This document shows, piece after piece, positions 12,257 to 22,396 of a stretch of 64,000 nt of DNA (position 1 is its first letter; every line of letters begins with the position of its first letter). The stretch is from a candidate division WOR-3 bacterium (GTDB lineage: Bacteria > Hydrothermota > Tepidihabitantia > SM23-42): contig CP070686.1 of NCBI GenBank assembly GCA_020353055.1, positions 638,965 to 702,964 on the forward strand. Direction: 5' to 3'. Both the position numbers and the translations under genes were made by a program. The notes under the pieces are model-generated. The model made no database searches. It was not told the origin of the DNA and worked only from the letters and a program-made list of their open reading frames with translations.

Positions 12257-13477
12257 CTAGTCTATATCACTGCTGGTTCTCACCTGGGCAAGCAATTTGA
12301 CAATTCTCGCAGCAGCCTTGCCATCTCCTAAAACATGATCATCAGCATTTATGCCTTCTTGATTTTGCTTGTTGAGCGATCCTATGGCGCTGGCAACACT
12401 CTGACTTTGCACACCTCCGATTTTCATTGAATCATATTCGAGCAATTCTACCCACTCGGTCTCCTCACGTAGAACAACACACGGAACACCCAGTAAGAAT
12501 GCTTCTCGCTGCACACCACCTGAATCCGTCAGCACTACTGCGGAATTTTTTTCAAGTACGAGCATGTCACAGTAACTAACAGGATCTGTGAATCTGACAC
12601 GCGAATCATCCAGATGATATCCCCCCTGTCGACGCAGGACATTTTGCGTCCTCGGATGCACAGGGAAGAGAATCGGCTTCTTGTCATCAATGTCGTGGAG
12701 CGCATCGATGATACTTTTTACTCTGGTTGGATCATCCGTATTCTCGGCTCTGTGGATCGTCACCAGATAGTACCCTTTTGGCTCCAGAGCGAATTCATCC
12801 AATATTCTGGATTTTTTTTCGGCAACGCCCATGCTCATCAACAGGCTATCGTACATGACGTCTCCAACATTGATGACAACCGGTATCTGTTCCCGGGATA
12901 AAGGAATATTAGTGTCCTGAACGCCGATAAGCGCACCATTATTCAGGATCTCGACAAATCCTTCGTTACGGAGGTTTGAAATAGCAGTTCCGGTCGGGCA
13001 AAAAAGAAAATCTGCGCAGTGGTCGGTCAGCACTCGATTGATTTCCTCCGGCATGGAACGAACAAAACTTCTCAGTCCAGCTTCAATATGAGCCAGGGGA
13101 TAATGCAACTTAGCAGCGGCAAGAGCACCTGCAAGCGTCGTATTCGTATCACCGTACACGAGCACCACATCGGGTTTTTCGTCAAGCAAAATCTTTTCGA
13201 CACGCGCCAACATCTTTCCCGTTTGCCAACCGTGCGGGCCTGACCCCACGCCCAGATAGAAATCAGGTTTCGGGAGTTCTAAATCATCGAAAAAGATCCT
13301 ATTCATCTTGAAGGAATAGTGCTGTCCGGTGTGCACGACCTTATGCGATATGACTCTGTTTTCAGTCAATGAGTTATGTTCTGCAATTGCTCTTATGATG
13401 GGTGCAAGCTTAACGAACTGCGGACGGTTTCCGATCACGCTCAGTAATTTCATCTTTTCCATCGGCACTTTCTCCAA
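12257..13477 (-). CDS. wecB: UDP-N-acetylglucosamine 2-epimerase (non-hydrolysing), WecB family
   Basis: Carries HTGQHYSFKMNRIFFDDLELPKPDFYLGVGSG, VYGDTNTTLAGALAAAKLHYPLAHIEAGLRSF and MPEEINRVLTDH. Confidence 0.85.
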   Translation of the reverse strand: MEKVPMEKMKLLSVIGNRPQFVKLAPIIRAIAEHNSLTENRVISHKVVHTGQHYSFKMNRIFFDDLELPKPDFYLGVGSGPHGWQTGKMLARVEKILLDEKPDVVLVYGDTNTTLAGALAAAKLHYPLAHIEAGLRSFVRSMPEEINRVLTDHCADFLFCPTGTAISNLRNEGFVEILNNGALIGVQDTNIPLSREQIPVVINVGDVMYDSLLMSMGVAEKKSRILDEFALEPKGYYLVTIHRAENTDDPTRVKSIIDALHDIDDKKPILFPVHPRTQNVLRRQGGYHLDDSRVRFTDPVSYCDMLVLEKNSAVVLTDSGGVQREAFLLGVPCVVLREETEWVELLEYDSMKIGGVQSQSVASAIGSLNKQNQEGINADDHVLGDGKAAARIVKLLAQVRTSSDID

Positions 13478-14457
13478 AGATAGAACATCGTAATCGCCGT
13501 TTTGTACTTGCCAGGTTGATGAATCTTTTCAAAGCGGCCGAAATTCAAAATCGCTCCTCCGAATTTCTGTTTGAATCTGCGAACCCCGTAATCTTTATCG
13601 GGGCTGCCTGCTCCGCCAAAATCAAAGGTCGAATAACCGTTAGCCTTTCCCCATTTGAAAACTTCCCAGGGCAGTATGTCGTTGGGGTACTTTCTCAGAA
13701 ATTCGAACCGACTTCCCGCATACCAGTCATATAACAAGTCTTTGTACGCCAGAATGCAGATCACGCCGATGAGTTTATCGTCAATGAAGGCACCAAAGTA
13801 TCTGATCATCTGGTGAGGGCCGAGTACTCTGAAGGCCCCTTGAAACATTGTCTTGTCGGCCAGTGGCAATCCAGCTTGAGCATAGACTCCTTTCAGGATT
13901 TCGTAAGAAGTATCGATATCATCCTTTCCATCCAGTTCACGTACTTTCACCCCCTCCTTGTAAGCCTTCCTGATCTCGTTGCGTCTCTTTGAATGCATTT
14001 CATCCCATAATGACTGTTCTGATTTTGTTAAATCGATGATTATATTCAGGTGATCCTTATACGAATACTTTAGTTCAAGAAAATTTGGCTGCAACTTGTC
14101 AATATCCCAGAGGTTACGGAATTGGGTGTATAACGCCCTCGCCCGTATCTCCTTCTCATAGGCACGGAGTAACAAAGCAAGAATGTTAAGGTCGTCGTGT
14201 GCGACAAGGGGGCCCCCCCATACCACCGAACGTGTGGTTAGTCCGCCTAACGGACCGTCAAACTCCCGCAGTAAAACGGCAACTAATAACCCCTGAACAG
14301 CCCCGTTATCACTTACGACGGCAAATAGCAACGGCTCATTGTGTTTAGTGTTACTGTAGACATCATACATTTCCGGTGTCTGAAAGATATTCCCTTTAGG
14401 ATGATCACGAACGAAATCTGACCAGATCTGCCGATCTAATTTATTGACGATATTCAT
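13450..14457 (-). CDS. FemAB-family / GNAT-fold (Acetyltransf_6-like) aminoacyl- or acyl-transferase, resembling the exosortase-locus FemAB-like proteins
   Basis: 335 aa. The motif SLWDEMHSKRRNEIRKAYKEGVKVRE is the FemAB / BioF2-like hallmark (KRRNxIRKA). Size and context fit the PEP-CTERM-associated FemAB-like family. Confidence 0.5.
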   Translation of the reverse strand: MNIVNKLDRQIWSDFVRDHPKGNIFQTPEMYDVYSNTKHNEPLLFAVVSDNGAVQGLLVAVLLREFDGPLGGLTTRSVVWGGPLVAHDDLNILALLLRAYEKEIRARALYTQFRNLWDIDKLQPNFLELKYSYKDHLNIIIDLTKSEQSLWDEMHSKRRNEIRKAYKEGVKVRELDGKDDIDTSYEILKGVYAQAGLPLADKTMFQGAFRVLGPHQMIRYFGAFIDDKLIGVICILAYKDLLYDWYAGSRFEFLRKYPNDILPWEVFKWGKANGYSTFDFGGAGSPDKDYGVRRFKQKFGGAILNFGRFEKIHQPGKYKTAITMFYLWRKCRWKR

Positions 14458-21060: not shown

Positions 21061-22396
21061 AATCGTTCTTAAAGTATTGAAATTTGGAACTTCGACTCTC
21101 GATCTTTTCAGTGATCCTTAACCTATATCCGACAGAATACCTTCGCAGCAACGCACGAATAATGGATTCCAGCTCACTTTTATCCTCTTGAGTAAAACTA
21201 TCCGTAACCTCGAACACAAATATAAGGTATTTTCCGTTCCAGATGGTCTGGTGCTTATTGAAATTGTGCACCTTACGGAACGCGGCACCACCAAACACGG
21301 TGACTGGTGAAATGACCATCCCATTCGGCAGTTTTATAAGCTCAGAAGTTCTGCCAACTATCTCCCTAAAATATGGACTCTCCAGACCACATTTGCACTG
21401 TTGCGTGTGATCGATTCCATCAAACATATCACCAACCTCGTATCTGATGAAGGGCATTGCATAATTCTCAAGGTCAGTAAGGACTATTCTCTTAGTGCTA
21501 TTCCCAGAAATACTGTCCTCATACTCGACGTAGACTCGCGGTTCTATTATGTGGTAGTTCTTCTCCAAACACTCAACGGCAACACCATTGATCTCCCCAC
21601 AACCGTAAACATCCCGGACCGGGCCAAGAACACCTTCGATTATTTCTCGCTGATATGTATAAAGATTCTCGGCGGTCGTTAGCACTTTCTTCGGTCGATG
21701 CATCTTGATATTTCTATCAAGCGCGTACTTAGCGATCGTGTAGATGGAACTTGTGTAACCATCAATAAGCTCTGGTTTGTATGAATTGATCATCCTAACT
21801 GCTGATTGGTAGCTTCTATCATCATCCAAAGATCCTGCTGGGAAATATTTCGCATTGAGCAATTTTCGCTTCAATCTGCTGCCCAACCGGTGCCATTGAG
21901 CGGCAGAGTCTGGAGTACCCCAGACGTGAAATCTCTTCTCCCCGACGCTGCAACCAGACAGATTCCACATGAAATATGTGGCAGCTATGTCTGCACTCCG
22001 GGCGTTTGTATCTTTGTAATAGGTAATCGGAATGCCGGTCGTACCGCTTGAGGTGTGCTGACTTGCACCAAAGGCCCGAAAATCCTCCGCCAGAAGATCG
22101 TCCAGACTGTCCCTCAGGTCAGTCCTCGTGAGCAGCGGCAATCTTCTGAGGTCCTTGAAAGAATTGAATGAATCCGGTGTTAATCTGCTACGCACAAATC
22201 TAGCATGGTAGAAAGGCACATTATCATACGCGTGCCTTAAGAGTGCCCTCATCCGCTCGAGTTGATAAGCTTCGATGCGTTGTCGGCGCCAATTTAGAGC
22301 TGCCCTGTATAATCGATGATATTTCCGAACCCTTAATCCCGAGCATTTGTCTATCACCCGCAGTGCAACATTGTTGGCAAACGCTTCTTTACTCAC
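21047..22396 (-). CDS. Phenylacetate-CoA ligase family adenylate-forming enzyme (CapK-like)
   Basis: Carries the motif SSGTTGIPITYY (compare TSGTTGKP of the PaaK/CapK family). About 450 aa. The context is a capsule/EPS-type locus. Confidence 0.6.
   Translation of the reverse strand: MSKEAFANNVALRVIDKCSGLRVRKYHRLYRAALNWRRQRIEAYQLERMRALLRHAYDNVPFYHARFVRSRLTPDSFNSFKDLRRLPLLTRTDLRDSLDDLLAEDFRAFGASQHTSSGTTGIPITYYKDTNARSADIAATYFMWNLSGCSVGEKRFHVWGTPDSAAQWHRLGSRLKRKLLNAKYFPAGSLDDDRSYQSAVRMINSYKPELIDGYTSSIYTIAKYALDRNIKMHRPKKVLTTAENLYTYQREIIEGVLGPVRDVYGCGEINGVAVECLEKNYHIIEPRVYVEYEDSISGNSTKRIVLTDLENYAMPFIRYEVGDMFDGIDHTQQCKCGLESPYFREIVGRTSELIKLPNGMVISPVTVFGGAAFRKVHNFNKHQTIWNGKYLIFVFEVTDSFTQEDKSELESIIRALLRRYSVGYRLRITEKIESRSSKFQYFKNDYDAN

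Follow-up and report, generated by a model that had tools for sequence, protein, structure and literature searches.

The stretch of DNA considered here (the window, 64,000 nucleotides in full) belongs to a candidate division WOR-3 bacterium (assembly GCA_020353055.1, contig CP070686.1, positions 638,965 to 702,964 of the forward strand). Nearly the whole of it is taken up by a polysaccharide super-locus of the Wzx/Wzy/Wzc type, which runs on the minus strand from about 60891 to 8179 (~53 kb). Our subject is a group of seven co-oriented minus-strand open reading frames (ORFs) at 13450-22396, with overlaps or gaps of at most 66 bp, which together with four further genes downstream make up an operon of 11 genes extending from 22396 down to 8179. 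An earlier note on this sequence had described the seven as an exosortase-locus-like decoration module in a genome of the FCB (Fibrobacteres-Chlorobi-Bacteroidetes) group with a type IX secretion system (T9SS). The module exists: all seven ORFs lie where they had been placed, tightly packed on the minus strand. The genome label is likewise correct, as the PKD-domain protein adjoining the operon passes the T9SS sorting-domain model TIGR04183; the host genome uses T9SS, and we treat this sorted neighbour as context only. Every large ORF in the window was scanned with Pfam and NCBIfam models, and the features are collected in Table 1.

Table 1. Genes of the operon, from first to last, followed by other features of the window; where two scores are given, the second is the cutoff of the model.
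Position	Strand	Feature	Evidence
21047-22396	-	PaaK-like adenylate-forming (ANL) ligase, 449 aa	PDB 4r1l (phenylacetate-CoA ligase), E 5e-20
20056-21060	-	CE4 (carbohydrate esterase family 4; NodB-type, HpPgdA-like) metal-dependent de-N-acetylase, 334 aa	PF01522 30.2 vs 23.1; DUF2334 weak
18231-20054	-	AsnB-like PP-loop enzyme, rare subfamily, 607 aa	no catalytic Cys; PP-loop SLTGGMDSR
16333-18189	-	AsnB-like PP-loop enzyme, 'MPG' clade, 618 aa	Pro for Cys1; PP-loop SLTGGFDTR
15335-16336	-	small GT4 (glycosyltransferase family 4) enzyme, 333 aa	Glyco_trans_1_4, Glycos_transf_1, Glyco_transf_4
14524-15294	-	NodB/CE4-fold protein, 256 aa	AlphaFold2 (AF2) model and Foldseek; weak profile match
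13450-14457	-	FemAB-family (FemX-like) putative aminoacyl-tRNA-dependent aminoacyltransferase, 335 aa	PF02388 76.6 vs 24; PF13480 (Acetyltransf_6) 53.9
12257-13477	-	non-hydrolysing UDP-GlcNAc 2-epimerase (WecB/WbpI type)	TIGR00236 310 vs 210; Epimerase_2 334 bits
11083-12204	-	DUF354 protein	PF04007 45.8 vs 22
9249-11090	-	canonical glutamine-hydrolysing AsnB-type amidotransferase (WbpS/WbqG-like)	MCGLVGM start; TIGR01536 434.7 vs 267
8179-9243	-	Bac_transf polyprenyl-phosphate sugar-phosphate transferase, last gene of the operon; one of two initiating transferases	PF02397 69.9
22393-25983	-	two GT4 enzymes and an NDP-sugar 6-dehydrogenase, directly upstream of the operon	dehydrogenase TIGR03026 376 vs 190
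55054-57955	-	WbpB-like 3-dehydrogenase fused to hexapeptide N-acetyltransferase (560 aa), then DegT aminotransferase	GFO_IDH_MocA and Hexapep; DegT 421 bits
58267-60891		Wzc-type tyrosine autokinase	
34668-36293		Wzx flippase, one of two	
46946-48385		Wzx flippase, one of two	
2222-2878		Bac_transf initiating transferase, the other of two	
3148-5472	-	PKD-domain protein, 774 aa, with T9SS type A C-terminal sorting domain	TIGR04183 38.3 vs 23; PF18962 29.2 vs 27
61500-61808	+	small ArsR-like winged helix-turn-helix ORF	in gene-poor stretch
62054-62251	-	65-aa ORF, 4-oxalocrotonate tautomerase-like	start MPHIEINLW; in gene-poor stretch

The signature gene of the module encodes the FemAB-family protein, whose homologues form 619 clusters. 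It carries the motif HSKRRNEIRKAYKEG, and the KRRNEIRKA motif reported earlier is found in its translation; the RRFKQKFGG motif (FK..FGG) is conserved, with K296, G300 and G301 invariant. It passes the Pfam gathering score and resembles solved FemX structures, its PDB matches being FemX and lipid II glycyltransferase and no other families, and it is thus a member of FemAB. The 256-aa protein encoded directly upstream gave no Pfam or NCBIfam match in the model scans. It belongs to a family of at least 6479 clusters (at the 90% identity level, E<=1e-3) that are about 50% identical over many bacterial phyla, with one match on a contig of a Hodarchaeota metagenome-assembled genome (MAG). The family profile matches PgdA (SpPgdA) weakly in the PDB (E 1.4e-3), and the top 11 Foldseek PDB matches of the AF2 model (pLDDT 89.7) are all CE4 enzymes, with modest query-normalised TM scores of 0.39-0.49. 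D44, D46, H90, E91, H95, E97, H132 and H221 are invariant in the family, and the metal site is a variant one: the D-x-D, the first His and the H-x4-H are kept, and an invariant Glu replaces the second His of H-x-x-x-H. We presume this protein to be the de-N-acetylase partner of the FemAB protein. BLASTP between it and the 334-aa CE4 protein finds the shared string HEIG(C/Y)H and nothing more; the plural 'CE4 deacetylases' of the earlier note is borne out at the level of the fold, by AF2 and Foldseek for the 256-aa protein and by PF01522 for the other.

The operon was compared with the surroundings of homologues of the 607-aa AsnB-like protein and of the FemAB protein, with 80 metagenome loci of unknown taxonomy and with a plasmid of Spirosoma oryzicola (related loci are given L numbers). 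L012 contains the entire operon in identical order, with the seven in-range genes 61-70% identical, and looser synteny is found in loci of Cloacimonadota and Acidobacteriota MAGs, in an Aminicenantes locus (L013) and in Spirosoma. Because this gene order recurs in L012 and, more loosely, in several phyla, the co-occurrence of the genes is not due to chance. Two blocks are common to the Cloacimonadota, Acidobacteriota and Aminicenantes loci: the 607-aa AsnB-like gene with the CE4 gene, and the MPG AsnB-like gene with the small GT4, FemAB and DUF354 genes (with or without the WecB-type gene). Between the two blocks lies a variable cassette, which is the PaaK-like ligase in the window and in L012 and elsewhere an ATP-grasp enzyme with a methyltransferase, or a set of short-chain dehydrogenase/reductase (SDR), acyl carrier protein (ACP), beta-ketoacyl-ACP synthase III (KASIII) and a second SDR. 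DUF354 is the steadiest neighbour of this FemAB subfamily: its start lies within 400 bp downstream of the FemAB gene in 29 of 50 loci. Among the well-flanked metagenome loci (at least 6 kb on both sides, n=14), DUF354 and the 256-aa NodB-like gene each occur within 6 kb of FemAB in 13, whereas any AsnB-like gene does so in six and the ligase in three. The conserved core across phyla is therefore the triad of FemAB, DUF354 and the 256-aa NodB-like protein, and the full list given in the earlier note is a lineage-specific elaboration of it. In the cultured Bacteroidota strain S. oryzicola RHs26 the plasmid locus (L095; NZ_CP089540.1, 153881-184852) reads GT4, DUF354, FemAB-like (40% identical), DegT, DUF354, NodB-like (42%) and WecB. 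These core genes adjoin HisH, AglZ/HisF2 and N-acetyl sugar amidotransferase genes (acetamidino formation) as well as an UpxY antiterminator.

The DUF354 protein shows faint similarity to MurG (TIGR01133, E 4e-4; PDB 3s2u, E 0.057) and possibly has a GT-B fold; none of the papers listed by a literature search on DUF354 described what it does. In several loci the domain is present as tandem or fused double copies (L014 11010-13388; L030, L032, L067). The WecB-type 2-epimerase gene is often linked with the FemAB-DUF354 pair, and homologues of the Bac_transf gene terminate many FemAB/DUF354 loci.

The asparagine synthetase-family amidotransferases had been half rightly identified. Two AsnB-fold PP-loop proteins are indeed encoded in the range, but the catalytic Cys is absent from both, and the true AsnB lies outside 13450-22396: of the operon's AsnB-type proteins only that encoded at 9249-11090 has the N-terminal Cys of a class II (N-terminal nucleophile, Ntn) amidotransferase (MCGLVG). 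Probably it is this enzyme, the operon's one canonical glutamine amidotransferase, that forms the uronamide. The 607-aa protein begins MNTTRLLFG, its N-terminus MNTTRLLFGAFG contains no Cys, and it scores 48.7 on TIGR01536 (cutoff 267) and 19 on Pfam Asn_synthase (cutoff 21); its best PDB match is the hydroxyamidotransferase 7ylz. The type is rare: a word-index search gives 21 close clusters, and an exhaustive profile search of 1.84 billion gives 36 representatives at E<=1e-30, which lie inside a far bigger set of AsnB-like proteins of ~600 aa. The MPG protein, read from its start context, begins with the ATG at 18189, the mechanical ORF beginning with a TTG at 18204. Its N-terminal MPGIVGI aligns with the MCGLVGM of the canonical AsnB of the same operon, placing a Pro opposite the nucleophilic Cys. 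Homologues of this protein begin MPG or MAG; among the 118 top full-length AsnB-like representatives of ~600 aa, Cys is missing from the first ten residues of 101, and 51 open with Met-Pro-Gly. The pattern of the clade is Met-Pro-Gly-(I/L)-x-G (e.g. representatives P0303-P0345) where canonical enzymes have Met-Cys-Gly; its PP-loop LSGGxDSR is invariant and the glutamine-binding (glutaminase) positions Arg49 and Asn74 are lost.

The PP-loop is invariant in the 607-aa and MPG clades alike, and since it is kept while the catalytic Cys is lost, the two in-range proteins are probably not glutamine amidotransferases. That a Pro is conserved at the N-terminus of an Ntn-type fold suggests that the residue is under selection and has not simply decayed. 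Beta-lactam synthetase/CarA and the lasso-peptide cyclases, which are Cys-less AsnB-fold adenylating enzymes, share with the in-range proteins the two-domain AsnB architecture, the PP-loop and the loss of the glutaminase nucleophile; the similarity is weak (E 2e-4 to 3e-6), and the context here is glycan synthesis and not peptide or beta-lactam formation. By this parallel the in-range proteins probably activate a carboxylate by adenylation and, at the expense of ATP, join it in an amide to a nucleophile not derived from glutamine. The literature searched contained no described counterpart of the conserved N-terminal Met-Pro-Gly, nor, in further searches, anything relevant on AsnB-like enzymes of glycan loci that lack the Cys or on genes of amino-acid-amide uronic acids.

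The 334-aa protein has the HTFSH metal-binding motif (H-S/T-x-x-H) of CE4 enzymes, to which it belongs, and Helicobacter pylori PgdA (3qbu, E 2e-6) as its best PDB match; its gene is always paired with the 607-aa AsnB-like gene, whose homologues it adjoins or lies near in L001, L002-L007, L012 and L036/37. The ligase is of the PaaK/F390-synthetase type, its SSGTTG loop aligned with that of 4r1l; it is PaaK-like by sequence alone. It has no Pfam match even at E 5, and its NCBIfam scores are far under the cutoffs (DVU_1553 family, 101 vs 300; PaaK, TIGR02155, 83.5 vs 646). A bona fide PaaK in aromatic catabolism was considered and rejected on that last score and on the neighbours, which are glycosyltransferases and a deacetylase. 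Homologues of the ligase occur in L012 (63% identical), in L014/L031 (41%), where they are flanked by an AsnL623-like gene and a small GT4, and in the pDVUL01 exosortase locus of Nitratidesulfovibrio vulgaris (27%), where a PaaK-family ligase gene stands directly beside a FemAB-like gene. The small GT4 matches NCBIfam models far under cutoff throughout; its homologues (31-69% identical; L002, L005, L006, L012, L014, L018, L027, L031, L035, L095) come after the MPG AsnB-like gene in most relatives. The NDP-sugar 6-dehydrogenase encoded just upstream is 48-54% identical in the Cloacimonadota loci and is the predicted source of a uronic acid. The genes at 55054-57955, where NF040723 (UDP-GlcNAc 3-dehydrogenase) scores 176 against a cutoff of 450, are candidates for the WbpB/D/E steps towards a 2,3-diamino uronic acid.

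Among characterised systems the nearest analogue of the operon is the Wbp/Vim pathway, which the earlier interpretation did not name. In Porphyromonas gingivalis and Tannerella forsythia the C-terminus of T9SS cargo is joined by an amide bond to a linking sugar (Veith 2020, PMC7468200), namely 2-N-seryl-3-N-acetylglucuronamide in the former and 2-N-glycyl-3-N-acetylmannuronic acid in the latter (PMC7468200). WbpA/B/E/D produce a di-N-acetyl uronic acid, from which VimE (CE4, PGN_1055) strips the 2-N-acetyl group; VimA (PGN_1056), which matches TIGR03019, adds the amino acid and the AsnB-type WbpS (PGN_1234) amidates the carboxylate (PMC7468200). The GT4 enzyme VimF probably transfers the linking sugar (Veith et al. 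2026, PMC13086638). Every one of these enzyme classes is encoded in the window (WbpA/B/E/D-like, 2-epimerase, CE4, FemAB-like, GT4 and WbpS-like), as assigned by family models and not by orthology. The sequence link to VimA consists of a shared sub-threshold match to TIGR03019 and of 24% identity (E 2e-18 in a small database) to the FemAB-like gene of pDVUL01, which Veith et al. label VimA (PMC7468200). 'Plasmid' matches of the FemAB protein in Bacteroides finegoldii and Phocaeicola (22-25% identical) were considered as VimA orthologues; the B. finegoldii gene stands alone amid central-metabolism genes and is uninformative.

The likeness extends to host and product: both systems are found in FCB-group hosts with T9SS cargo, the Wbp/Vim product is built into a Wzy-dependent glycan, as that of the window would be, and T. 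forsythia also uses a 2-epimerase. In contrast to the Wbp/Vim genes, those of the window all lie in one operon inside a giant exopolysaccharide (EPS) locus and include two Cys-less AsnB-like enzymes, the PaaK-like ligase, DUF354 and a second, Pfam-less NodB-like protein. Pseudomonas aeruginosa WbpS and Escherichia coli O121 WbqG, which form uronamides, have been assigned to the TIGR03108 family (PMC7468200). The canonical AsnB of the operon shares their intact MCG N-terminus and reaches 364 bits on TIGR03108, yet remains under the 817 cutoff; the two in-range AsnB-like genes are not of this type.

With moderate confidence we propose that the range is the tailoring half of the 11-gene operon, which would build and install one heavily N-modified acetamido-uronic acid and would do so without an exosortase. 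Family, motif and context underlie each proposed step of the pathway. A UDP-(di)acetamido-hexuronic acid would come from the NDP-sugar 6-dehydrogenase and WecB-type 2-epimerase, possibly with the WbpB/D/E-like genes, as their families predict. A NodB-fold enzyme would then remove an N-acetyl group and free the sugar amine, the candidates on grounds of fold, motifs and gene pairing being the 256-aa protein paired with FemAB and the 334-aa CE4 enzyme paired with the 607-aa AsnB-like protein. Given its family and the precedent of VimA, the FemAB protein would move an amino acid from aminoacyl-tRNA to this amine, and the canonical AsnB, as a homologue of WbpS/WbqG, would turn the C6 carboxylate into a uronamide. 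The weakest step, argued from motifs and comparative context, is the next: the Cys-less AsnB-like proteins probably turn a carboxylate into its adenylate and couple to this free ammonia, an amino acid or a sugar amine instead of glutamine-derived ammonia. At the same stage the PaaK-like ligase would activate a further carboxylic acid; as relatives carry ATP-grasp or ACP/KASIII/SDR genes in its place, this position appears to be a swappable one for an acyl or amide donor. Finally, the small GT4 and/or DUF354 may transfer the finished sugar, and Bac_transf would start the lipid-linked unit, as the gene context suggests.

Several observations weigh against this tailoring pathway. Its steps are putative, including the donors and acceptors assigned to the FemAB and Cys-less AsnB-like proteins. 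The WbpB/D/E-like genes lie ~33 kb from the FemAB gene and may serve another sugar of a very large locus with two Wzx flippases and two initiating transferases. The 256-aa protein is without the second His of the CE4 H-x-x-x-H, and its Foldseek TM scores reach only ~0.4-0.5; given the missing His, its role could be one of binding without hydrolysis. The Vim operon does not include DUF354, and its transferase VimF is a GT4. The core triad, moreover, is also present in lineages without T9SS and on one archaeal MAG contig.

A more specific function would follow if the analogy with Wbp/Vim extended to the linking sugar itself, in which case a PorU-type sortase would link the newly formed C-terminus of T9SS cargo, through an amide, to the alpha-amine left free on the aminoacyl group. 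The enzyme classes are those of the Wbp/Vim pathway, a T9SS-sorted protein flanks the operon both in the window and in L018, and WOR-3, Cloacimonadota and Spirosoma all belong to the FCB group, in which T9SS occurs. We nevertheless consider this extension unlikely, if still the best placed of the alternatives, because the triad occurs in Acidobacteriota and Aminicenantes MAGs and on the Hodarchaeota contig, which are not known T9SS lineages, and because the sugar may be a mere antigenic decoration. The Wbp/Vim product is attached to protein, whereas the link to T9SS shown in the window is the adjoining gene for a sorting-domain protein. Bolder still, and doubtful enough that we would put it below the linking-sugar function, is a joint proposal: the aminoacylated amino-uronic acid made by the triad might be a general handle for C-terminal protein-to-glycan sorting, and the MPG AsnB-like proteins a new class of ATP-dependent sugar-carboxylate:amine ligases. 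Were the first part true, the handle would serve PorU/T9SS in FCB bacteria (including WOR-3) and, elsewhere, exosortases or other sortases; were the second, the N-terminal Pro would have assumed, in place of the lost Cys1, a part in catalysis or in substrate gating.

The comparison that gave the module its first description was with the accessory set of XrtA/PEP-CTERM EPS loci, and it left two possibilities: that an exosortase and its substrates are encoded elsewhere in the genome, or that the module serves a Wzx/Wzy/Wzc pathway without one. The second is the better of the two. The theme of FemAB-like, deacetylase, GT4 and AsnB-type proteins is common to XrtA loci (TIGR03019, TIGR03006, TIGR03087/8, TIGR03108) and the window, and several of the best or near-best NCBIfam matches are XrtA-linked: TIGR03019 is the top match of the FemAB protein, albeit sub-threshold, TIGR03088 (stp2) that of the neighbouring GT4, and TIGR03108 the second-best of the flanking AsnB at 9249-11090. 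The adjacent ligase and FemAB-like genes in the pDVUL01 exosortase locus point the same way. This likeness is real at the level of superfamilies, but no gene is a true member of the XrtA families, the scores being 2-27x under the curated cutoffs. The FemAB protein reaches 69.4 bits on TIGR03019 (E 2.7e-19), about fourfold below the cutoff of 260.35; against the TIGR03108 cutoff of 816.9 the ORFs at 16333-18204 and 18231-20054 score 81.3 and 29.9, and the flanking AsnB 363.9. TIGR03006 is unmatched by both deacetylase-like proteins at E<=1e-3, and the ligase, though the AMP-forming enzyme it had been called, does not match TIGR03098. Poor scores against these four models are what the earlier note had named as evidence against its reading.

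Direct comparison agrees with the models. Our reference was the XrtA locus of Vibrio alfacsensis pVa1, in which genes for a deacetylase, FemAB, a TIGR03087 GT, exosortase A and an amidotransferase follow one another without interruption. With the TIGR03019-named protein there the FemAB protein shares 22% identity, and the flanking AsnB shares 33% with the XrtA amidotransferase; neither the two deacetylases nor the two Cys-less AsnB-like proteins have detectable similarity to their XrtA counterparts in pVa1 by tblastn. True XrtA loci hold the exosortase inside the cluster. In the window, as had been noted, neither an exosortase nor a PEP-CTERM protein is visible: the exosortase and EpsI models match none of its ORFs, and a regular-expression scan of all six frames for PEP-CTERM tails (PEP, transmembrane segment, basic residues) is blank. 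No exosortase is present in the Pfam-annotated related loci, and PrsK/PrsR are also not in the window. Together with the loss of the glutaminase nucleophile from the in-range AsnB-like proteins, these differences make an XrtA system with its exosortase elsewhere in the genome very improbable. Homologues of vimA, the deacetylase and asnB have been noted in exosortase loci, with an amino-acid-modified sugar as common acceptor offered as speculation (PMC7468200). The gene set is a widespread sugar-decorating operon and is not exosortase-specific; as an analogous set is known from T9SS bacteria, the Wbp/Vim pathway would explain why an exosortase-like set is found in a T9SS genome.

Two further readings were rejected on gene context and retain hardly any credibility. 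Peptidoglycan remodelling, with FemAB forming interpeptide bridges, the AsnB-like proteins amidating meso-diaminopimelate or D-Glu and CE4 enzymes deacetylating the glycan, would suit the NCBI name 'peptidoglycan bridge formation glycyltransferase FemA/FemB family' and the PDB matches to FemX and PgdA, but the genes are co-oriented and packed with GT4s, Bac_transf, an NDP-sugar dehydrogenase, Wzx, Wzy and Wzc, mur, pbp and ftsW genes are absent, and NF047883 (FemX) scores 49.5 against 500. A natural-product or ribosomally synthesised peptide (RiPP) pathway, in which the AsnB-like proteins would be cyclases of the lasso or macrolactam kind and would act together with the PaaK-like ligase and radical SAM enzymes, finds an echo in weak matches to NF033535 (lasso cyclase, 65.7 bits) and NF033561 (macrolactam cyclase, 46.3 bits) and in natural-product PaaK-like ligases (AjiA1, 6siw) among the PDB matches of the ligase, but those scores are far under the cutoffs of 525 and 300, a precursor peptide, protease and B-protein are absent, and the constant neighbours in all relatives are glycosyltransferases and sugar-nucleotide enzymes.

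Around the tailoring operon, the super-locus also encodes one Wzy_C protein, numerous GT4 and GT2 enzymes and several sugar-nucleotide enzymes. It contains a single Wzy_C and a single Wzc, yet two Wzx and two initiating Bac_transf proteins; two different lipid-linked units may be synthesised and joined. This would resemble the O-unit plus linker-unit model put forward for P. gingivalis (PMC13086638). At 26034-28965 a LegC-family aminotransferase that passes TIGR04181 (470 vs 420) adjoins an SDR epimerase/dehydratase and a sugar-1-phosphate nucleotidyltransferase, which suggests a branch for a legionaminic-acid-like or related 4-amino-6-deoxy sugar. The glycosyltransferases are interspersed with two radical SAM proteins, of which one has a SPASM domain, and a class V aminotransferase or cysteine-desulfurase-like protein (45804-46949, 52870-53976, 29010-30206), a content unusual for a polysaccharide locus. 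Upstream of wzc, a gene-poor stretch of 1.9 kb (60892-62751) is probably the regulatory boundary of the super-locus. A divergently oriented pair of DUF6982 and TPR/CarboxypepD_reg genes flanks the operon end at 5955-8048 (L012 16364-18463); it is 82-95% identical to L012, whereas the polysaccharide genes are only 61-74% identical.

A sugar-tailoring system of this sort has a published conceptual precedent. The set of FemAB-like, deacetylase, GT4 and AsnB-like proteins is now seen in three settings, i.e. XrtA loci, the Wbp/Vim pathway of Bacteroidota and the Wzx/Wzy operon of the window, and this recurrence lends support to a published speculation, namely that cell-surface chemistry makes repeated use of aminoacylated uronic sugars, possibly for the anchoring of proteins. 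The analysis also delimits three uncharacterised families that always accompany the set and are tightly coupled to it: the Pfam-less NodB-like proteins (>6000 clusters), DUF354 and the large AsnB-like clade with Pro in place of Cys. The Spirosoma oryzicola RHs26 plasmid provides a cultured carrier in which the chemistry could be worked out.

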